From NCBI RefSeq assembly GCF_036507355.1, contig NZ_AP027877.1: 64,000 bases of DNA. The stretch is one strand, 5' to 3'. Of the stretch, positions 29,600 through 40,034 are shown in pieces. Source of the stretch: Escherichia coli. Lineage in GTDB: Bacteria; Pseudomonadota; Gammaproteobacteria; Enterobacterales; Enterobacteriaceae. The translations under genes and the position numbers were made by a program. The first letter of the stretch is position 1. Each line of letters begins with the position of its first letter. Below the pieces are notes generated by a model, which saw only the letters and a list, made by a program, of their open reading frames with translations, did not search any database and was not told where the DNA came from.

Positions 29600-31291
29600 A
29601 TGAAAACGCTGCTGATTATTGACGCTAATCTCGGTCAGGCACGCGCCTATATGGCGAAGACCCTGCTGGGCGCGGCGGCGCGAAAAGCAAAACTGGAAAT
29701 CATCGACAATCCGAACGACGCAGAAATGGCGATTGTTCTCGGTGATTCCATCCCGAATGACAGCGCGCTGAACGGTAAAAATGTCTGGCTGGGCGATATT
29801 TCCCGGGCAGTTGCGCACCCTGAGCTGTTCCTGAGTGAAGCCAAAGGCCATGCGAAACCTTACACTGCGCCGGTCGCTGCGACAGCACCGGTTGCCGCCA
29901 GCGGTCCGAAACGCGTAGTTGCGGTGACTGCTTGCCCGACTGGCGTAGCACACACCTTTATGGCGGCTGAAGCCATTGAAACCGAAGCGAAAAAACGTGG
30001 CTGGTGGGTGAAAGTTGAAACCCGTGGTTCTGTTGGTGCGGGTAATGCAATCACCCCCGAAGAAGTAGCCGCAGCGGATCTGGTGATTGTGGCGGCAGAT
30101 ATCGAAGTGGATCTGGCGAAATTTGCTGGTAAACCGATGTATCGTACCTCTACCGGTCTGGCGCTGAAGAAAACCGCGCAGGAACTGGATAAAGCGGTTG
30201 CTGAAGCAACGCCGTATGAACCGGCGGGCAAAGCTCAAACGGCGACCTCTGAAGGTAAGAAAGAGAGTGCAGGCGCATACCGTCACTTGCTGACGGGCGT
30301 CTCTTACATGCTGCCGATGGTCGTTGCAGGTGGTCTGTGTATCGCGCTTTCTTTTGCTTTTGGTATCGAAGCGTTTAAAGAGCCGGGTACGTTGGCAGCG
30401 GCGCTGATGCAGATTGGTGGTGGTTCAGCCTTTGCGCTGATGGTGCCGGTACTGGCAGGTTACATTGCCTTCTCCATTGCCGATCGTCCGGGTCTCACGC
30501 CGGGTCTGATTGGCGGTATGCTGGCGGTCAGCACCGGTTCTGGCTTCATTGGCGGTATTATTGCGGGCTTCCTGGCTGGTTACATTGCGAAGTTAATCAG
30601 TACGCAACTGAAACTGCCACAGAGTATGGAGGCGCTGAAACCGATCCTGATCATTCCGCTAATTTCCAGTCTGGTGGTCGGTCTGGCGATGATCTACCTG
30701 ATCGGTAAACCGGTTGCTGGCATTCTCGAAGGGTTGACTCACTGGCTGCAGACCATGGGGACTGCGAATGCGGTTCTGCTGGGGGCGATCCTCGGTGGCA
30801 TGATGTGTACTGACATGGGCGGTCCGGTAAATAAAGCAGCGTACGCATTCGGTGTGGGTCTGCTGAGTACTCAAACCTATGGCCCGATGGCGGCGATTAT
30901 GGCGGCAGGTATGGTGCCACCGCTGGCAATGGGTCTGGCAACAATGGTGGCGCGTCGCAAATTCGACAAAGCGCAGCAGGAAGGTGGCAAAGCCGCTCTG
31001 GTTCTTGGTCTGTGCTTTATTTCGGAAGGTGCAATTCCGTTTGCTGCTCGTGATCCGATGCGTGTGCTGCCGTGCTGTATCGTGGGTGGGGCGCTGACTG
31101 GCGCAATCTCAATGGCGATTGGTGCGAAACTGATGGCACCGCACGGTGGTCTGTTTGTTCTGCTGATCCCTGGCGCTATTACGCCGGTACTGGGTTACCT
31201 GGTAGCAATTATTGCCGGTACGCTGGTGGCGGGTTTGGCCTATGCCTTCCTGAAACGTCCGGAAGTGGACGCAGTAGCGAAAGCCGCGTAA
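29600..31291 (+). CDS. fruA: PTS fructose-specific EIIB'BC
   Basis: 563-aa ORF with IIB domains (CPTGVAHT) and a polytopic IIC domain. Confidence 0.92.
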   Translation: MKTLLIIDANLGQARAYMAKTLLGAAARKAKLEIIDNPNDAEMAIVLGDSIPNDSALNGKNVWLGDISRAVAHPELFLSEAKGHAKPYTAPVAATAPVAASGPKRVVAVTACPTGVAHTFMAAEAIETEAKKRGWWVKVETRGSVGAGNAITPEEVAAADLVIVAADIEVDLAKFAGKPMYRTSTGLALKKTAQELDKAVAEATPYEPAGKAQTATSEGKKESAGAYRHLLTGVSYMLPMVVAGGLCIALSFAFGIEAFKEPGTLAAALMQIGGGSAFALMVPVLAGYIAFSIADRPGLTPGLIGGMLAVSTGSGFIGGIIAGFLAGYIAKLISTQLKLPQSMEALKPILIIPLISSLVVGLAMIYLIGKPVAGILEGLTHWLQTMGTANAVLLGAILGGMMCTDMGGPVNKAAYAFGVGLLSTQTYGPMAAIMAAGMVPPLAMGLATMVARRKFDKAQQEGGKAALVLGLCFISEGAIPFAARDPMRVLPCCIVGGALTGAISMAIGAKLMAPHGGLFVLLIPGAITPVLGYLVAIIAGTLVAGLAYAFLKRPEVDAVAKAA

Positions 31292-31615
31292 TAAAAGGTG
31301 TGTTACAGGGCAGAATTTTACTGCCCTGTATCATTGGATGAGCGCAAAGAGAATGACCGGTTTGTGAATGTAATTTTATGAATTTAAATGGTTTTATCTT
31401 TCAGTAGAAACCTGAAACGTTCATCAAACACTAAGGTTATTTCCTCAAGGGCAGATTCTTTTCTGCCCTTTTTTAGTGTTCATGTTCTGTGCATCCCGTC
31501 ACAAATTCCTCGCTTTTGTAATTCTGGCATTTAATCGCATTTTGTGAGCCTGCTCAAATCTGCCCGCTTTGCCTCTCTGGCGGCAATTTACTTTACGTAA
31601 AACATGCATACTATG

Positions 31616-31647
31616 AGCACATGTTTAAATATGAACACATGTTTAAA
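31616..31647. promoter_or_regulatory. Direct repeat gagcacatgtttaaa / gaacacatgtttaaa (17-bp period), a candidate operator upstream of psuK
   Basis: Two near-identical 15-mers, each containing the palindromes ACATGT and TTTAAA, 70-100 bp upstream of the psuK start. Confidence 0.35.
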
Positions 31648-31714
31648 CTGTCTTTGCAGTATCTATATTCTTGTGGATTGACAGGGTTGGTAATTTTTTA
31701 CCAGAGGACGTGCT

Positions 31715-32656
31715 ATGCGCGAAAAGGATTATGTCGTAATTATAGGCTCGGCGAATATTGATGTCGCCGGATATTCACATGAATCATTAAATTATGCGGA
31801 TTCAAATCCAGGTAAAATAAAATTTACGCCTGGTGGGGTAGGGCGCAATATTGCACAAAACCTGGCGTTGCTGGGTAATAAAGCCTGGCTACTGAGCGCC
31901 GTAGGCAGTGATTTTTATGGCCAATCGCTGCTAACGCAAACCAATCAATCTGGCGTTTATGTCGATAAATGCCTGATTGTGCCGGGAGAAAATACGTCGA
32001 GCTATTTATCATTACTCGATAATACCGGTGAAATGCTGGTTGCTATAAATGACATGAATATTAGCAACGCTATTACAGCTGAATATCTCGCACAGCACCG
32101 TGAATTTATTCAGAGGGCAAAGGTCATTGTCGCGGACTGTAATATCAGTGAAGAGGCACTGGCATGGATTCTGGATAATGCTGCCAACGTACCCGTATTT
32201 GTCGATCCGGTTTCAGCGTGGAAATGTGTCAAAGTGCGCGACCGTCTAAATCAGATCCACACTCTGAAGCCAAACCGCCTTGAAGCGGAAACACTGAGTG
32301 GGATTGCGCTGTCAGGGCGTGAAGATGTGGCAAAAGTTGCTGCCTGGTTCCATCAACATGGCCTGAACCGACTGGTATTGAGCATGGGCGGCGATGGCGT
32401 TTATTACAGCGATATCAGCGGTGAAAGTGGCTGGTCTGCGCCGATCAAAACCAATGTTATTAATGTTACCGGAGCGGGCGATGCCATGATGGCGGGACTT
32501 GCTTCGTGTTGGGTAGACGGAATGCCGTTTGCCGAATCTGTTCGTTTCGCACAGGGATGTTCGTCAATGGCGCTCTCCTGTGAATACACCAATAACCCCG
32601 ATTTATCGATTGCCAACGTTATATCGTTAGTGGAGAACGCAGAATGTCTGAATTAA
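31715..32656 (+). CDS. psuK: Pseudouridine kinase PsuK (YeiC), PfkB family
   Basis: 313-aa ORF with PfkB motifs (GGVGRN, TGAGDAM). Confidence 0.88.
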   Translation: MREKDYVVIIGSANIDVAGYSHESLNYADSNPGKIKFTPGGVGRNIAQNLALLGNKAWLLSAVGSDFYGQSLLTQTNQSGVYVDKCLIVPGENTSSYLSLLDNTGEMLVAINDMNISNAITAEYLAQHREFIQRAKVIVADCNISEEALAWILDNAANVPVFVDPVSAWKCVKVRDRLNQIHTLKPNRLEAETLSGIALSGREDVAKVAAWFHQHGLNRLVLSMGGDGVYYSDISGESGWSAPIKTNVINVTGAGDAMMAGLASCWVDGMPFAESVRFAQGCSSMALSCEYTNNPDLSIANVISLVENAECLN

Positions 32657-33582
32657 AAATTTCCCCTGAATTATTACAAATTTCCCCGGAAGTGCAGGAC
32701 GCTTTAAAAAACAAAAAACCGGTTGTGGCGCTGGAATCGACCATTATTTCTCACGGGATGCCGTTCCCACAAAATGCCCAGACCGCAATTGAAGTTGAAG
32801 AAACTATTCGTAAACAGGGCGCAGTACCTGCCACTATCGCCATTATTGGTGGCGTGATGAAAGTGGGTTTAAGCAAAGATGAAATTGAATTACTGGGTCG
32901 TGAAGGGCATAACGTGACCAAAGTTAGTCGTCGCGATTTACCTTTTGTTGTTGCCGCCGGAAAAAATGGCGCAACCACTGTGGCTTCAACGATGATTATT
33001 GCGGCGCTTGCCGGAATTAAAGTATTTGCCACCGGGGGAATTGGTGGTGTTCATCGCGGGGCGGAACATACCTTCGATATTTCTGCCGATTTGCAAGAAC
33101 TGGCAAATACTAATGTCACCGTTGTTTGTGCCGGGGCGAAATCTATTCTCGATTTAGGATTAACCACTGAGTATTTAGAAACCTTCGGTGTGCCGTTAAT
33201 TGGCTATCAGACTAAAGCGCTGCCTGCGTTTTTCTGCCGCACCAGCCCGTTTGACGTCAGCATTCGTCTCGACAGCGCCAGCGAAATTGCCCGTGCAATG
33301 GCGGTGAAATGGCAAAGCGGGCTGAACGGTGGCCTCGTGGTAGCGAACCCGATCCCGGAACAGTTTGCTATGCCGGAACACACTATCAATGCGGCGATCG
33401 ATCAGGCGGTAGCTGAAGCTGAAGCGCAGGGTGTTATTGGTAAAGAAAGTACGCCATTCCTGCTGGCGCGCGTTGCTGAGCTGACCGGCGGTGACAGCCT
33501 GAAATTCAACATCCAGCTGGTGTTCAACAACGCCATTCTGGCGAGCGAAATTGCCAAAGAATATCAGCGTCTCGCGGGTTAA
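32644..33582 (+). CDS. psuG: Pseudouridine-5'-phosphate glycosidase PsuG (YeiN)
   Basis: 312-aa ORF of the indigoidine-synthase-A-like family; 13-bp overlap with psuK. Confidence 0.88.
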   Translation: MSELKISPELLQISPEVQDALKNKKPVVALESTIISHGMPFPQNAQTAIEVEETIRKQGAVPATIAIIGGVMKVGLSKDEIELLGREGHNVTKVSRRDLPFVVAAGKNGATTVASTMIIAALAGIKVFATGGIGGVHRGAEHTFDISADLQELANTNVTVVCAGAKSILDLGLTTEYLETFGVPLIGYQTKALPAFFCRTSPFDVSIRLDSASEIARAMAVKWQSGLNGGLVVANPIPEQFAMPEHTINAAIDQAVAEAEAQGVIGKESTPFLLARVAELTGGDSLKFNIQLVFNNAILASEIAKEYQRLAG

Positions 33583-33675
33583 TTTCTGACGGGCAGAAAG
33601 CCGTCGCCCGTACTGATCATACATACCGAAACCTGGCGCTGACGCCGGGTTTACTGGCATGAAGGGAAAATCATT

Positions 33676-34926
33676 ATGGATATAATGAGAAGTGTTGTGG
33701 GGATGGTGGTGTTACTGGCAATAGCATTTCTGTTGTCGGTAAATAAAAAGAGCATCAGTTTGCGCACGGTTGGAGCCGCACTGCTGCTGCAAATCGCTAT
33801 TGGTGGCATCATGCTCTATTTTCCGCCGGGAAAATGGGCAGTAGAACAGGCGGCATTAGGCGTTCATAAAGTGATGTCTTACAGTGATGCCGGTAGCGCC
33901 TTCATTTTTGGTTCGCTGGTTGGGCCGAAAATGGATGTCCTCTTTGACGGTGCGGGTTTTATCTTCGCCTTTCGCGTACTTCCGGCGATTATCTTCGTCA
34001 CTGCGCTCATTAGTCTGCTGTACTACATTGGCGTGATGGGGCTGCTGATTCGCATCCTTGGCAGCATTTTCCAGAAAGCCCTCAACATCAGCAAAATCGA
34101 ATCTTTTGTCGCAGTCACCACTATTTTCCTCGGGCAAAATGAGATCCCGGCGATCGTTAAACCGTTTATCGATCGCATGAATCGAAACGAGTTGTTTACC
34201 GCAATTTGTAGCGGGATGGCGTCCATTGCTGGTTCGATGATGATTGGTTATGCCGGAATGGGCGTACCAATTGACTACCTGTTAGCGGCATCGCTGATGG
34301 CGATCCCCGGCGGTATTTTGTTTGCACGAATTCTTAGTCCAGCAACCGAGCTTTCGCAGGTCACGTTTGAAAATCTGTCGTTCAGCGAAACGCCGCCAAA
34401 AAGCTTTATCGAAGCAGCGGCGAGCGGTGCGATGACCGGGCTGAAAATCGCCGCCGGTGTGGCGACGGTGGTCATGGCGTTTGTCGCAATTATTGCGCTG
34501 ATTAATGGCATTATTGGCGGAATTGGCGGCTGGTTTGGTTTTGCCAATGCCTCTCTGGAAAGTATTTTTGGCTATGTGCTGGCACCGCTGGCGTGGATCA
34601 TGGGTGTGGACTGGAGTGATGCCAACCTTGCGGGTAGCCTGATTGGGCAGAAACTGGCGATTAACGAATTCGTCGCTTACCTGAGTTTCTCCCCATACCT
34701 GCAAACGGGCGGCACGCTGGAAGTGAAAACCATTGCGATTATCTCCTTTGCGCTTTGTGGTTTTGCTAACTTTGGTTCTATCGGTGTTGTCGTTGGGGCA
34801 TTTTCGGCTATTTCGCCAAAACGTGCTCCGGAAATCGCCCAGCTTGGTTTACGGGCGCTGGCAGCAGCAACGCTTTCCAACCTGATGAGCGCGACCATTG
34901 CCGGGTTCTTTATTGGTTTAGCTTGA
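33676..34926 (+). CDS. psuT: NupC-family nucleoside transporter PsuT (YeiM)
   Basis: 416-aa polytopic ORF; paralogue of nupX at about 80% identity. Confidence 0.88.
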   Translation: MDIMRSVVGMVVLLAIAFLLSVNKKSISLRTVGAALLLQIAIGGIMLYFPPGKWAVEQAALGVHKVMSYSDAGSAFIFGSLVGPKMDVLFDGAGFIFAFRVLPAIIFVTALISLLYYIGVMGLLIRILGSIFQKALNISKIESFVAVTTIFLGQNEIPAIVKPFIDRMNRNELFTAICSGMASIAGSMMIGYAGMGVPIDYLLAASLMAIPGGILFARILSPATELSQVTFENLSFSETPPKSFIEAAASGAMTGLKIAAGVATVVMAFVAIIALINGIIGGIGGWFGFANASLESIFGYVLAPLAWIMGVDWSDANLAGSLIGQKLAINEFVAYLSFSPYLQTGGTLEVKTIAIISFALCGFANFGSIGVVVGAFSAISPKRAPEIAQLGLRALAAATLSNLMSATIAGFFIGLA

Positions 34927-34993
34927 GTTTCATTGCCGGATGTACTCGCTTATTAAGCGTTGCATCCGGCAATCGCGCTATTGCAAATAATTT

Positions 34994-35653
34994 TTACTGC
35001 ATCATCCCGGAGAATTTATTCTCCGGGTCCATCTCCAGCGCCAGTCCTGACAACTGCTTTCTGTTTTTAATGAGATATCCTTTCTTGCTTTTAATTAATA
35101 AACCGTCGTGAATGAATTGCGCGAGAACATATAAAAGATGTCGATAAGAAACGCCTAAATACTCTGCCGCTTGCGTATGCTTTTCGTGATAAAGATCACC
35201 TTCTTGTGAGAGTAATATAAATGCTGCCAGGCGATTCACTAACGGAAATGATTGATTCTGAGTTAAAGAAACAATATTACGATAATTTTTATGACTTAAG
35301 GTGACGCAAAGTTTTCGTAAAAATAGGGTGTCGTTTAATAACAGCGGACGGTAATGTTTCATAGGGAGCGCAAGGCACCAACACTCTTCAATCGCCTGTA
35401 CTGCACGTGGTTCATGGTCTTTATCGATTAACTCAATCTCGCCAATAAAACAGGGGGCGGCAAAGAAATCGATCAGCGACACGCAACCATTAGCTAGCGT
35501 GGCGTAAAGCCTGGCGCGGCCTCGCGTCAGGTAAAACAGCCAGGACGGCTGTTGCCCTTCCTGCACAATGTAGTCACGCGCTAAAAAATGAAACAGCCGC
35601 GTATCGGCTGAAACATCCGTTAAAAAGCAATCCTTAAACGCGGATTCACTCAT
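34994..35653 (-). CDS. yeiL: CRP/FNR-family transcriptional regulator YeiL
   Basis: 219-aa ORF with a cNMP-binding-like fold and C-terminal HTH ([16 protein letters not shown]); start placed at [10 protein letters not shown]. Confidence 0.85.
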
Positions 35654-35705
35654 CAATTGCTGCTTAAGATCATTATTGTGGATTTCTTTCACGATGTTTA
35701 TCCGC

Positions 35706-35721
35706 TATGAGATTTCTCATA
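35706..35721. promoter_or_regulatory. Perfect 16-bp palindrome tatgagatttctcata in the divergent yeiL/rihB promoter region
   Basis: Perfect dyad about 55 bp upstream of the yeiL start; a candidate site for a CRP/FNR-type dimer. Confidence 0.35.
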
Positions 35722-35821
35722 TTTAGCATACGTACGCTGTTGTTAAGATTCAATCATCGGCCCGGTCGAATTTTCTTTGCTGTAGAAAAAATAACGCAAC
35801 TGGAAACAGAGGAAATAAACA

Positions 35822-36763
35822 ATGGAAAAGAGAAAAATTATTCTGGATTGTGATCCGGGTCATGATGATGCTATTGCAATGATGATGGCAGCGAAACATC
35901 CGGCAATAGATTTATTAGGCATCACTATTGTAGCGGGTAATCAGACGCTTGATAAAACATTAATTAATGGCCTGAATGTTTGCCAGAAACTGGAGATTAA
36001 TGTTCCGGTTTATGCGGGGATGCCGCAACCCATTATGCGTCAACAAATCGTTGCCGATAATATTCACGGTGAAACCGGACTGGATGGCCCGGTATTCGAG
36101 CCGCTGACCCGCCAGGCAGAAAGTACCCACGCGGTGAAATACATCATTGATACCCTGATGGCAAGCGATGGCGATATCACTCTGGTGCCGGTTGGTCCGT
36201 TGTCAAATATCGCGGTGGCAATGCGTATGCAATCCGCAATCCTGCCCAAAATCCGTGAAATTGTGCTAATGGGCGGCGCTTACGGTACAGGCAACTTCAC
36301 GCCATCTGCCGAGTTCAACATCTTTGCTGACCCGGAAGCCGCACGCGTGGTGTTCACCTCCGGCGTTCCATTAGTGATGATGGGCCTCGATCTTACCAAC
36401 CAGACCGTTTGCACCCCGGACGTAATTGTTCGGATGGAAAGGGCAGGCGGCCCTGCCGGAGAGCTATTCAGCGACATCATGAACTTCACTCTCAAAACGC
36501 AGTTCGAAAACTACGGCCTGGCTGGCGGCCCGGTGCACGACGCCACCTGCATCGGTTATCTGATTAACCCTGATGGCATTAAAACCCAGGAGATGTACGT
36601 CGAAGTGGACGTCAACAGTGGCCCTTGCTATGGGCGTACCGTCTGCGACGAGCTGGGCGTTCTTGGCAAGCCCGCTAATACCAAAGTCGGCATCACTATT
36701 GATACCGACTGGTTCTGGGGCTTAGTCGAAGAGTGCGTGCGCGGCTACATCAAAACCCATTAA
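35822..36763 (+). CDS. rihB: Pyrimidine-specific ribonucleoside hydrolase RihB (YeiK)
   Basis: 313-aa ORF with the inosine-uridine nucleoside hydrolase DxDxxxDD motif ([11 protein letters not shown]). Confidence 0.9.
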
Positions 36764-36973
36764 GTGTTGATAACAAGCCGGGTCAGTATCGCAAAATGCA
36801 GGCCCGGCTATTTCTGAGGGGCAGAAAGCCGTCGCCCAATATGACATGAAGAGATAATAACTATGGATGTCATGAGAAGTGTTCTGGGAATGGTGGTATT
36901 GCTGACGATTGCGTTTTTGGTGATGCTGCCAACTTACTGATTTAGTGTATGATGGTGTTTTTGAGGTGCTCCA

Positions 36974-37249
36974 GTGGCTTCTGTTTCTATCAGCTGTCCC
37001 TCCTGTTCAGCTACTGACGGGGTGGTGCGTAACGGCAAAAGCACCGCCGGACATCAGCGCTATCTCTGCTCTCACTGCCGTAAAACATGGCAACTGCAGT
37101 TCACTTACACCGCTTCTCAACCCGGTACGCACCAGAAAATCATTGATATGGCCATGAATGGCGTTGGATGCCGGGCAACAGCCCGCATTATGGGCGTTGG
37201 CCTCAACACGATTTTACGTCACTTAAAAAACTCAGGCCGCAGTCGGTAA
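36974..37249 (+). CDS. insA: IS1 InsA
   Basis: Identical 91-aa translation. Confidence 0.9.
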
Positions 37250-37671
37250 CCTCGCGCATACAGCCGGGCAGTGACGTCATCGTCTGCGCGGAAATGGACG
37301 AACAGTGGGGCTATGTCGGGGCTAAATCGCGCCAGCGCTGGCTGTTTTACGCGTATGACAGGCTCCGGAAGACGGTTGTTGCGCACGTATTCGGTGAACG
37401 CACGATGGCGACGCTGGGGCGTCTTATGAGCCTGCTGTCACCCTTTGACGTGGTGATATGGATGACGGATGGCTGGCCGCTGTATGAATCCCGCCTGAAG
37501 GGAAAGCTGCACGTAATCAGCAAGCGATATACGCAGCGAATTGAGCGGCATAACCTGAATCTGAGGCAGCACCTGGCACGGCTGGGACGGAAGTCGCTGT
37601 CGTTCTCAAAATCGGTGGAGCTGCATGACAAAGTCATCGGGCATTATCTGAACATAAAACACTATCAATAA
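37168..37671 (+). CDS. insB: IS1 InsB
   Basis: Identical 167-aa translation. Confidence 0.88.
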
Positions 37672-38945
37672 GTTGGAGTCATTACCTGCGTTTTTACTGT
37701 CAGTAAACAAGAAGAAGATCAGCCTGCGTACCGTTGGCGCGGCGTTAGTGTTACAGGTTGTGATTGGCGGGATTATGCTTTGGTTACCGCCAGGGCGTTG
37801 GGTCGCTGAAAAAGTCGCTTTTGGCGTGCATAAAGTGATGGCGTACAGCGATGCAGGTAGCGCATTTATCTTCGGTTCGCTGGTCGGGCCGAAAATGGAC
37901 ACGCTGTTTGATGGCGCAGGATTTATCTTTGGTTTCAGGGTGTTACCGGCAATTATCTTCGTCACCGCGCTGGTGAGTATTCTCTATTACATCGGTGTGA
38001 TGGGGATCTTAATTCGCATTCTCGGCGGTATATTCCAGAAAGCATTAAATATCAGCAAGATCGAGTCATTCGTCGCGGTCACTACCATTTTCCTCGGGCA
38101 AAACGAAATTCCGGCGATCGTCAAACCCTTTATCGATCGTCTGAATCGCAATGAATTATTTACAGCGATTTGTAGTGGCATGGCCTCGATTGCTGGTTCG
38201 ACAATGATTGGTTACGCCGCACTGGGCGTGCCTGTGGAATATTTGCTGGCGGCATCGTTAATGGCGATCCCAGGCGGGATCTTGTTTGCCCGCCTGCTAA
38301 GCCCGGCTATGGAATCTTCGCAGGTTTCTTTTAATAACCTCTCTTTCACCGAAACACCGCCAAAAAGCATTATTGAAGCTGCCGCGACAGAGGCAATGAC
38401 CGGGCTGAAAATCGCCGCAGGTGTGGCGACAGTAGTGATGGCATTTGTCGCCATCATTGCGTTAATTAACGGTATTATCGGCGGCGTTGGCGGCTGGTTT
38501 GGTTTTGAACATGCCTCGCTGGAATCCATTTTAGGTTACCTGCTGGCCCCACTGGCGTGGGTGATGGGTGTTGACTGGAGTGATGCGAATCTTGCCGGGA
38601 GTTTGATTGGTCAGAAACTGGCAATAAATGAATTTGTCGCTTATCTCAATTTCTCACCCTATCTGCAAACGGCTGACAAGCTGGATGCTAAAACCGTGGC
38701 GATTATTTCCTTCGCGTTGTGCGGTTTCGCTAACTTTGGTTCTATCGGGGTGGTGGTGGGGGCGTTTTCTGCGGTTGCGCCACACCGTGCGCCGGAAATC
38801 GCCCAACTTGGTTTACGCGCGCTGGCGGCGGCGACACTTTCTAATCTGATGAGTGCCACCATTGCCGGGTTCTTTATTGGTTTAGCGTAGTGTGCGATTT
38901 ATGAGCCGGATAATATGCGGTCAAGCGTCGAATCCGGCAACATTG

Positions 38946-40034
38946 TTACACCATTGGCATTAATGAAAGCGCGTTATCGGCAGACAAGGTAGGGTTATTT
39001 AAGCTGCCGCTGGCGCGTGAAATTGCCGCGCAGGCCATCGCAAAACGGGCGCTGTCACGGAAATTGTTTCCTTCCAGAAAGCTATATACCAGGCCCGCCA
39101 TAAAACCATCGTCAGCACCAAAACTGTCTACTGTCGTATGCGCTGGTGCGGTCAGCAAAAATTGTTCTCCATCCTTTTCGCTGCAATAAACTGACTCATC
39201 GGGCAAATAAACAAACAGTTGCTGAACACCTTGCTGATGCAACGCATTCACTGCAGCATTACGGTCAGCATCGCTGGTGATCGCCTGTCCCCATAAAATT
39301 TCCAGCTCCGGTAAAGTGGGTTTCAGGGTGTGAATATGCGCCAGCCAGTGTTTGATTTTGCCCGCTTTGAATTCTGAAACGGTATCGACAAACACCGGGA
39401 TCTCATCAGCGAGGGTAAAGACCCATTCCAGCGCCTCGGCTGTCAGGTTGCAATCAGCCAGTACCACGCCCGCATGACGAAGTAAATCGCGCGACCCGTT
39501 CAGTAGTTGCGGTGTCAACTGTTCCAGCAGATGGGTATCGTTAATCGCCAGCACGGTTTGATCGTCTCGATTGGCAATTGCCAGATACGTCGATGTGCTT
39601 TGACCATGCAAACGAACGCAGCCGGAGACATTCACGCCGGCACGGCGCGTTTCTTCCAGGAGCATTTCGCCATAAAAGTCATCGCCAATCACTGAAAGCA
39701 AATGGACGTCGCGGCCTAACAGCGCCAGATTGTGGGCGATATTGCGTCCAACGCCGCCTGCCGAGCAATGAATTGTACCGGGATGAGAAGCCGATTGCGG
39801 GTAACGGATATCCGCCATCCCGCGAATATCCATATTGATTGTCCCCACCACTACGCAGTATTCCTGCTCGGTGAGAATGTAACCTTTGCCTTTAATCCGG
39901 CCTTTGCGCATTAAATCCATAATATGCGCCGCAACGCGCGAACGGCTGATTTGCAGCATGTCCGCAATTTCGTTCTGCTGAATCAGCGGGTTACGCCGTA
40001 AAATTGCAAGGATCTCCTTTTCCCGGTTATTCAT
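38946..40034 (-). CDS. yeiI: Fusion protein YeiI: N-terminal winged-HTH domain plus PfkB-family carbohydrate/nucleoside kinase domain
   Basis: 362-aa ORF: N-terminus MNNREKEILAILRRNPLIQQNEIADMLQISRSRVAAHIMDL (HTH), then PfkB motifs similar to PsuK (GGVGRN, GADDGFMAG). Confidence 0.85.
   Translation of the reverse strand: MNNREKEILAILRRNPLIQQNEIADMLQISRSRVAAHIMDLMRKGRIKGKGYILTEQEYCVVVGTINMDIRGMADIRYPQSASHPGTIHCSAGGVGRNIAHNLALLGRDVHLLSVIGDDFYGEMLLEETRRAGVNVSGCVRLHGQSTSTYLAIANRDDQTVLAINDTHLLEQLTPQLLNGSRDLLRHAGVVLADCNLTAEALEWVFTLADEIPVFVDTVSEFKAGKIKHWLAHIHTLKPTLPELEILWGQAITSDADRNAAVNALHQQGVQQLFVYLPDESVYCSEKDGEQFLLTAPAHTTVDSFGADDGFMAGLVYSFLEGNNFRDSARFAMACAAISRASGSLNNPTLSADNALSLMPMV

Follow-up and report, generated by a model that had tools for sequence, protein, structure and literature searches.

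A conserved stem-loop in the leaders of the psuT and nupX nucleoside transporter genes of Enterobacterales is a candidate RNA regulatory element

The hairpins closest in form to the element described here are those read by a protein, namely the MS2/R17 coat-protein operator, lambda boxB and the selenocysteine insertion sequence (SECIS)-like element of selAB recognized by SelB. Other GC-rich stem-loops include the repetitive extragenic palindromic (REP) hairpins of malE-malF and the 5' stem-loop of ompA; intercistronic hairpins confer segmental mRNA stability in other operons, for example malEFG. We analysed a 64-kb stretch of an Escherichia coli genome (contig NZ_AP027877.1; "the window" below means this whole stretch of 64,000 nucleotides), in which a first-pass annotation had noticed the same 28-nt string, with one mismatch, upstream of the paralogous nucleoside transporter genes psuT and nupX. 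Both copies of the string carry a small hairpin, here called H1, with a stem of the form (C/U)GGGC...GCCC(G/A), 5-7 bp long and often extended by one or two outer pairs, and a loop with the consensus A-G-N-N-N-G-Y-N-G-U-C. Like the protein-read operators, H1 combines a short GC-rich stem that is kept by compensating changes with a fixed-length loop holding few invariant bases, and it lies in an untranslated leader near the cistron that would be regulated. Unlike them, it has no binding protein encoded consistently nearby, its loop consensus matches none of theirs and it does not overlap the ribosome-binding site. It also differs from the selAB element in lacking an in-frame UGA at a set distance, the preceding stop codons being TAA or TGA at 6-10 nt or at more than 20 nt. 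The comparisons below suggest that H1 is a previously undescribed small cis-acting mRNA stem-loop restricted to the leaders of psuT/nupX-type CNT genes of Enterobacterales.

The string, ATTTCTGA[C/G]GGGCAGAAAGCCGTCGCCC, has exactly two matches in the window, both on the plus strand (Table 1), and the chance expectation from 100 shuffles is none. The repetition reported earlier is thus real and its two sites were the right ones, with coordinates off by 1-2 nt. The first base of copy 1 is also the final A of the psuG stop codon TAA (33580-33582), and 66 nt separate the end of this copy from the psuT ATG. Copy 2 starts 47 nt past the rihB stop codon, with 25 nt between its end and the nupX ATG. 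Once the IS1 insertion in nupX is removed, the psuT and nupX coding sequences are 78.3% identical, close to the 80% first proposed, with 89%, 94% and 52% (51.6%) identity at the first, second and third codon positions, respectively. An identity of 27/28 is reached in only 15 of 1224 28-nt windows of the two coding sequences (1.2%), and our binomial estimate of the probability of 27/28 at neutral sites, taken at third-position identity, is about 3e-7. The identity of the string therefore exceeds what neutral sites would keep, in agreement with the earlier argument that it stands above the coding level. Of 5426 complete E. coli genomes, 5424 carry the element twice (median two places, maximum three), which shows that it is not a dispersed repeat. 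The flanks, which had been described as otherwise unrelated, are in fact partly homologous: the last 25 nt or so before each ATG align, and the psuT leader holds an extra block of about 41 nt carrying a second hairpin (H2).

To follow the element beyond E. coli, orthologous and paralogous psuT/nupX loci were gathered without requiring its presence, from a protein-anchored scan with one genome per species, from metagenomes scanned with the first 26 coding nucleotides as anchor, and from homologue-encoding contigs of Buttiauxella, Klebsiella michiganensis, Enterobacter, Pantoea, Rouxiella and Salmonella. H1 was found in all 146 psuT/nupX-like instances from the first two sources (35 distinct variants), in register and with no insertion or deletion in the stem or loop, and again in Buttiauxella, Enterobacter, Salmonella, Pantoea and Rouxiella among the contigs added later, so that its observed range covers Enterobacteriaceae, Erwiniaceae and Yersiniaceae. 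Across 18 diverse loci the 21-nt core has a mean pairwise identity of 77%, compared with 34-37% for the 20-nt flanks (ungapped) and 55% for third codon positions. These values indicate that the H1 core is conserved under selection and bear out the proposal of a shared cis-element in the paralogous leaders. H1 is absent upstream of a Pseudomonas homologue of 72% identity and upstream of all the NupC-type homologues examined at about 50% identity. A covariance model of the element (R1) matched only psuT/nupX loci (7 among 80 NupC-family loci), and in the 64-kb window only the two H1 copies count as true matches. A tree of the transporter proteins resolves a psuT-type and a nupX-type clade, and the Pantoea-type sequences fall outside both. 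H1 occurs in every one of these clades, so the element is older than the duplication seen in E. coli.

What is kept in the orthologous leaders of other genera is H1 and not the whole 28-mer. The two E. coli copies agree at eight flank and about four loop positions that otherwise vary freely among genera, whereas the two copies clearly differ within a Klebsiella contig (OKIW01000002.1) and within E. hormaechei. This pattern could be taken to mean that the identity has no function and is a leftover of duplication, or of recent short gene conversion between the E. coli copies. As an account of the element we find this barely conceivable, because all three families retain the stem, the length of the loop and its G-U, while flanks and synonymous sites are far more diverged. 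On this comparative evidence the explanation is contradicted for the H1 core and applies at most to the Escherichia-specific extra identity, which probably stems from a short gene-conversion tract not extending into the coding sequence. Because these positions are shared only in Escherichia, the identity of the paralogs overstates the constrained part of the 28-mer: 27/28 reflects constraint at about half of the positions and Escherichia-specific sharing at the remainder. The notion that the paralogous loops co-evolve within one genome was likewise rejected, since the Klebsiella OKIW01000002.1 and E. hormaechei copies differ.

The string contains both of the inverted repeats first recognized in it, TTTCTG-N5-CAGAAA and GGGC...GCCC, but they fare very differently across genera. 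In an alignment of 29 sequences, one per lineage, 93.1% of the cells of the H1 helix built on GGGC/GCCC are paired, sliding the 3' partner lowers this to 31-55%, and none of 500 shuffles reaches the observed pairing or covariation score. Three of its six pairs have changed on both sides (pair 10-30: CG16, UA8, UG3, GU1; pair 11-29: GC27, AU2; pair 9-31: AU12, GC5, GU2), and RNAalifold returned the identical helix as consensus. The closing pair is C-G in psuT-type leaders and U-A in most nupX-type leaders, including that of E. coli K-12, the nupX-type leaders of Entomohabitans and of the Klebsiella type having C-G instead. Intermediate U.G pairs are seen in a subclade of E. coli psuT, a Salmonella-related contig and Buttiauxella, and G.U in Dryocola. 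The second pair is A-U in place of G-C in Leclercia and in the psuT copy of E. hormaechei, and the outer pair varies between A-U, G-C and G.U. The single mismatch between the two copies of the 28-mer falls on the 5' base of this closing pair: K-12 has C...G in its psuT copy and U...A in its nupX copy, a compensated change, while the nupX copy in the window has G at this position, leaving a G.A mismatch beside the disrupted nupX. Aligning the upstream regions, as had been recommended, thus revealed compensatory changes in the stem across Enterobacterales.

The TTTCTG/CAGAAA dyad, by comparison, is paired in 55.7% of cells, mostly in Escherichia rows (slid controls, 34-44%), and is essentially specific to Escherichia; it does not stand as a conserved feature. 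Some E. coli nupX variants even disrupt its pairing, which argues against selection for that helix. An H-type pseudoknot using the same pairing was rejected as unconserved across genera.

An inverted repeat close to genes for helix-turn-helix (HTH) proteins also invites comparison with palindromic operators of the CRP/FNR type, and the first-pass annotation had put forward an operator as its leading idea. A dimeric regulator (YeiL, YeiI or another) would bind the repeat in double-stranded DNA, controlling an internal promoter or blocking elongation towards the transporter gene. The half-site centres of GGGC-N11-GCCC lie about one and a half helical turns apart, yeiL (Crp-type HTH) and yeiI (winged HTH) are nearby, and as both operons take part in nucleoside scavenging a shared regulator would make sense. 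We nevertheless consider this improbable. Although the GGGC/GCCC dyad is itself conserved, the conservation of the 11 nt between its arms is asymmetric and the ends of the arms covary, and the TTTCTG/CAGAAA dyad is not conserved outside Escherichia. The arms compensate and even differ between the copies of a single genome, in K-12 as well as in E. hormaechei (ACAGGC/GCCTGT in one copy and GACGGGC/GCCCGTC in the other), which a dimeric operator would not be expected to show and which one protein would not require. Tolerance of wobbles is confined to the sense strand: the five core pairs include seven cells that are G.U on this strand and a single cell (C.A in L143) that would be a wobble on the antisense strand only, a bias that suggests, without being decisive, that the sense strand matters. 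A crude consensus scan for sigma-70-like promoters found no site near either H1 copy, and both copies are inside operons, 25-66 nt before a start codon. H1 is also unlike the sites of the CRP/FNR family (TTGAT-N4-ATCAA). Taken together, the comparative data indicate that the H1 stem is kept by compensatory and wobble changes on the sense strand; such patterns are those expected of a sense-strand RNA hairpin and not of a dimeric operator. The RNA leader structure that had been offered as the second option, with GGGC/GCCC as its stem, is thus favoured.

Neither of the two regulators named as candidates tracks H1. YeiL has a cNMP-binding domain and a Crp-type HTH, and YeiI a winged HTH and a PfkB kinase domain (Pfam). 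The yeiL gene is divergent from and adjoins rihB in all rihB-nupX loci with sequence available 5' of rihB, but it lies near psuT-type loci only where the rihB-nupX module is in the same cluster (E. hormaechei and the window), and several psuT-type loci lack it. The yeiI gene is convergent after psuT in the six psuT-type loci with flank available, and also follows nupX in Entomohabitans (L015) and in the window, but is missing within 2.5-3 kb of nine nupX-type loci. Since H1 occurs in both contexts, neither YeiL nor YeiI appears to be its natural common reader, although either could act from elsewhere in the genome.

The loop is 11 nt long in all 40 variants, with G-U at positions 9-10, G at position 6 (one exception) and usually A-G at positions 1-2. 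The invariant columns of the 29-sequence alignment are two stem G, the loop G-U (G23, T24) and the first G-C of the 3' arm, and G20 is conserved in at least 90% of sequences. An invariant length with interspersed, asymmetrically conserved bases is typical of a loop read by a partner and is not needed in a passive barrier. From these patterns we infer that the H1 loop is read by a partner and that the effect is post-transcriptional. The reading we favour, tentatively, is that H1 is a sense-strand RNA leader hairpin, read through its loop, that modulates how strongly the distal transporter cistron is expressed. In psuKG-psuT and rihB-nupX transcripts, the untranslated spacer before the transporter gene would fold into H1, a trans-acting factor, most likely a protein, would read the loop on the folded stem, and this recognition would set the yield of transporter from the operon transcript by acting on translation or on the stability or processing of the distal mRNA segment. 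Same-strand genes, the overlap of the psuK and psuG frames, spacers of 93 and 99 nt and the missing promoter-like site all suggest that the H1 spacer is transcribed within the operon. The broader proposal that H1 is the operator of a sequence-specific RNA-binding regulator, or a minimal sensing RNA, governing pseudouridine and pyrimidine nucleoside uptake across Enterobacterales is one we regard as unlikely.

The main rival to loop recognition is a passive structure, that is, a stable stem-loop that shapes the fate of the mRNA without a specific partner by protecting the 5' end of a processed transporter mRNA, by acting as a 3'-exonuclease barrier for the enzyme mRNA or by shielding the untranslated spacer from Rho loading. 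Such a role, which we think rather unlikely, accounts for position and stem but not for the loop. It fits the intercistronic position of H1, flanked by an enzyme gene and a transporter gene at all loci, and the GC-rich stem (predicted core energy -4.9 to -8.4 kcal/mol in all lineages) that follows an A/U-rich, unstructured 5' flank; the neighbouring hairpins H0 and H2 plausibly serve such roles themselves, and the enzyme and transporter genes of these operons probably need different expression levels. However, a barrier does not need a loop fixed at 11 nt with an invariant G-U and a near-invariant G, a 5-6 bp stem impedes exonucleases only weakly, and nupX-type loci already have H0 after rihB, so that H1 is not needed there as the rihB 3' end. 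H1 shares with the malE-malF REP hairpins and the ompA stem-loop the GC-rich stem-loop as such, and with the former the intercistronic position, here in an enzyme-transporter operon. It differs from REP elements in having two copies per genome, in being much shorter, in travelling with the downstream gene and in its constrained loop. H1 may still turn out to be a routine stabiliser.

Rho-independent terminators and attenuators are a further point of comparison, as H1 has a GC-rich stem in a spacer and terminator-like neighbours in H0 and H2. Unlike them, H1 has no U-tract in any lineage (its 3' flank is GTACT, AATAT, GCGAA or ATACC), a terminator scan made no call at it, and it has no conserved alternative pairing with H2; an intrinsic terminator was therefore rejected. 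A signal acting on the elongating polymerase and formed by H1 or by its 3' half, either a pause hairpin or an element like the operon polarity suppressor (ops) that recruits an elongation factor to carry transcription past H2 or H0, would suit the position of H1 about 20 nt before the terminator-like H2 in psuT-type leaders. In most genera AGCGGTCGCCCG matches 8 of the 12 bases of the RfaH ops, GGCGGTAGnnTG, including the invariant G-T, and in our reading of the alignment the bases at -10, -1 and +1 fit the G-Y-G pause consensus. Yet the match falls to 7/12 in E. coli, which is about chance after trying a dozen known motifs at many offsets, the covarying 5' arm is left unexplained, and H1 is kept in leaders without H2. 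The psuKGT and rihB-nupX operons are not known to be RfaH targets. We therefore judge an elongation signal very improbable, and ops itself, with mismatches at A7 and T11 in this comparison by eye, was rejected.

Similarly, the leader of about 90 nt, in which a conserved linker (ATATCAGACATACCAAAACC) joins two hairpins, might be a minimal ligand-sensing RNA: H1, alone or with the C/A-rich linker and H2, would bind a nucleoside or related metabolite in the manner of the preQ1-I pseudoknot. In Escherichia the 5' flank could even form an H-type pseudoknot, UUUCU pairing with AGAAA around the CGGGC/GCCCG stem. That pairing, however, is not conserved across genera, several lineages have kept H1 but lost H2 and the linker, a 21-25-nt hairpin is by itself too small for known aptamers, and no Rfam match is obtained at E-values up to 10; a ligand sensor is scarcely to be expected.

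Several observations weigh against loop recognition of an RNA hairpin and should be read beside it. The shuffle control for the covariation ignores phylogeny, and, as the GGGC/GCCC core is nearly invariant, the covariation comes from three outer pairs, with perhaps five or six independent events among them. The GGGC-N11-GCCC repeat can be read as DNA too. In the ant-associated Candidatus Pantoea formicae (L330, 2371-2500) yeiL-rihB-nupX is kept with a 130-nt leader that has a different long hairpin in place of H1; this is the sole loss among the contigs examined and implies that H1 is dispensable in at least one lineage. The nupX copy of E. hormaechei has changes at three usually conserved loop bases. 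No candidate RNA-binding protein is encoded consistently near H1, and a published data set of E. coli transcript 3' ends has no entry at the element, which we ascribe, by assumption, to low expression of both operons in standard culture.

The first-pass annotation named no described regulatory element at this position, and our searches agree. A cmscan of positions 31000-40000 against Rfam 15, at E-values up to 10, gave seven weak matches, none of them overlapping H1, and literature searches by gene names, old y-names and sequence found no description of it. A riboswitch-scan paper that names yeiL and nupX flags other coordinates: its sites are in the fruA-psuK spacer (converted from older K-12 coordinates) and about 1.9 kb from nupX, near yeiE.

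The psuKGT and rihB-nupX operons are poorly characterised nucleoside-scavenging operons of E. coli whose transporter substrates are only partly defined: NupX transports uridine and cytidine weakly, and that of PsuT has been deduced from the operon context (PMC11241209). In long-term stationary-phase evolution, mutations recur in nupX and in the psuK promoter region (PMC7858067). Present before both transporters from Escherichia to Pantoea and Rouxiella, H1 offers a mutable handle on transporter versus enzyme expression and indicates that conserved structured leader motifs still go unannotated even in E. coli K-12. A protein partner of the loop, if there is one, would count as a new post-transcriptional regulator, and if an RNA regulator or sensor is involved, two poorly understood K-12 operons would have a dedicated RNA-level control circuit; as a passive stabiliser, H1 would be an ordinary finding.

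Table 1. Positions of the hairpins, repeats and flanking genes in the window
Feature	Position	Strand	Basis	Remarks
psuG, pseudouridine-5'-phosphate glycosidase	32644..33582	+	Open reading frame (ORF); Pfam Indigoidine_A, E = 7e-132; K-12 annotation	5' of copy 1
28-nt string, copy 1	33582..33609	+	Exact pattern match	psuG-psuT intercistronic region
TTTCTG-N5-CAGAAA inverted repeat	33583..33599	+		In both E. coli copies; overlaps H1 5' arm and loop
H1 of psuT leader	33589..33611	+	Window coordinates, consensus fold, pair counts	Core stem CGGGC 33590-33594 with GCCCG 33606-33610; outer A-U pair 33589/33611; loop AGAAAGCCGTC, 33595-33605, 11 nt; isolated hairpin predicted at -11.1 kcal/mol
H2, AAACCTGGCG-CTGA-CGCCGGGTTT	33629..33652	+		Terminator-like, short U run; between H1 and psuT ribosome-binding site
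psuT, CNT-family nucleoside transporter	33676..34926	+	ORF; Pfam Nucleos_tra2_N, Gate, Nucleos_tra2_C	3' of copy 1
rihB, pyrimidine nucleoside hydrolase	35822..36763	+	ORF; Pfam IU_nuc_hydro, E = 1e-96	5' of copy 2
H0, AGCCGGGTC...GGCCCGGCT, then ATTTCT	36776..36809	+	Predicted fold	Directly 5' of copy 2
28-nt string, copy 2	36810..36837	+	Exact pattern match	rihB-nupX intercistronic region
H1 of nupX leader	36818..36838	+	Window coordinates, K-12 comparison, fold	Stem GGGC 36819-36822 with GCCC 36834-36837; loop 36823-36833; closing position 36818/36838 is G.A here, U-A in K-12; predicted at -7.3 kcal/mol
nupX, split by IS1	36863..38890	+		416 aa reading through without IS1 and one duplicate

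The gene order in the window, from ORFs, Pfam domains and K-12 annotation, is fruK, fruA, psuK, psuG, psuT, yeiL (minus strand), rihB, nupX, yeiI (minus strand) and nfo (minus strand). The IS1 in nupX is 768 bp long (36919-37686), is flanked by a 9-bp target duplication, TGCGTTTTT (36910-36918 and 37687-37695), and follows codon 19; as judged from this interruption, nupX is a pseudogene in the window strain. In every case H1 is preceded by the enzyme gene (psuG or rihB) and followed by the transporter gene, both genes being on one strand. The psuT-type leaders run from the psuG stop through 6-10 nt, H1, the C/A-rich linker, H2 and the ribosome-binding site to the ATG, and the nupX-type leaders from the rihB stop through H0, which is unrelated, H1 and sometimes H2 to the ATG. 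In a Klebsiella-like contig (L149) in which a large insertion has extended the rihB-to-transporter spacer to 333 nt, H1 remains beside the transporter, which indicates that it stays tied to the 5' side of that gene whatever is upstream.

H2 has the general form AAAACCUGGCG...CGCCGGGUUU, with clear compensatory changes across genera. It is kept in all psuT-type leaders and in the Klebsiella nupX-type leaders, but has no counterpart in the E. coli nupX leader and is lost from many nupX-type leaders, in which H1 persists. H2 failed the U-tract criterion of the terminator scan and may be a weak attenuator. Its 3' arm can pair alternatively with a downstream CCUGGC (an H2/H3 alternative). No conserved alternative pairing between H1 and H2 was found, and an antiterminator-type switch between them was rejected, the only alternative lying downstream; together with the retention of H1 where H2 is lost, this marks H1 as a separate module. 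H0, by its predicted fold, is probably a weak terminator or 3' stabiliser of rihB, and non-homologous hairpins occupy its position in other nupX-type loci.

Further candidate identities were tried for H1 and set aside. A REP/BIME-type repeat or a wider regulon does not fit about two copies per E. coli genome, two covariance-model matches in the window and none elsewhere in the 80 NupC-family loci. A bacterial SECIS was rejected because the TAA or TGA stop is at variable distance, GGUC/CGUC is not apical and an inner helix is unsupported: such a helix in the loop (16-18 with 22-24), prompted by the E. hormaechei copy, was matched or exceeded by 147 of 500 shuffles and was rejected in its own right. 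By eye we dropped a sigma-54 promoter (wrong spacing), a PyrR binding loop (only in an E. coli variant), resemblances to tRNA D-, T- and anticodon arms, a CsrA site (the GGA motif is absent), a small upstream ORF (unconserved) and -10-like hexamers 5' of H1 (no -35 element, inconsistent spacing). Two hairpins after fruA (31305-31330 and 31448-31478, GGGCAGA...TCTGCCC) gave weak matches to the H1 model on both strands and are ordinary terminator-type palindromes; the weak R1 matches at 31440-31478 correspond to this terminator-like hairpin. A degenerate 14-base GC-rich pattern also matches viral contigs, and these matches are taken by assumption to be chance.

Some minor features of these loci were also recorded. 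The direct repeat ACATGTTTAAA occurs twice in the fruA-psuK intergenic region (31619-31629 and 31637-31647), some 70-95 nt ahead of the psuK ATG. As an operator of the psuKGT promoter, perhaps for YeiI, this repeat is plausible and looks a better candidate than H1. The yeiL-rihB-nupX genes form a travelling three-gene module in differing neighbourhoods in Pantoea, Rouxiella, Salmonella and Buttiauxella (among L322, L329-L333, L324, L325, L327), yeiI follows psuT convergently in Klebsiella, Enterobacter, Kluyvera and Leclercia, and E. hormaechei has the arrangement yeiL-rihB-nupX-psuK-psuG-psuT. The C/A-rich linker between H1 and H2 (33612-33630 in the window) is found in orthologous leaders, e.g., L333, L149 and L179, and is conserved in psuT-type and nupX-type leaders of several families; G-poor and unstructured, it could be a Rho-loading, sRNA-target or translational-enhancer segment. 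Finally, the first codons of both transporters, ATG GAT ATA ATG AGA AGT (33676-33696 and 36863-36883), are nearly identical in DNA across genera, with the rare codons AUA (GUC in nupX) at codon 3 and AGA at codon 5 kept in both genes, and this near-identity is also seen in loci found by protein similarity only.

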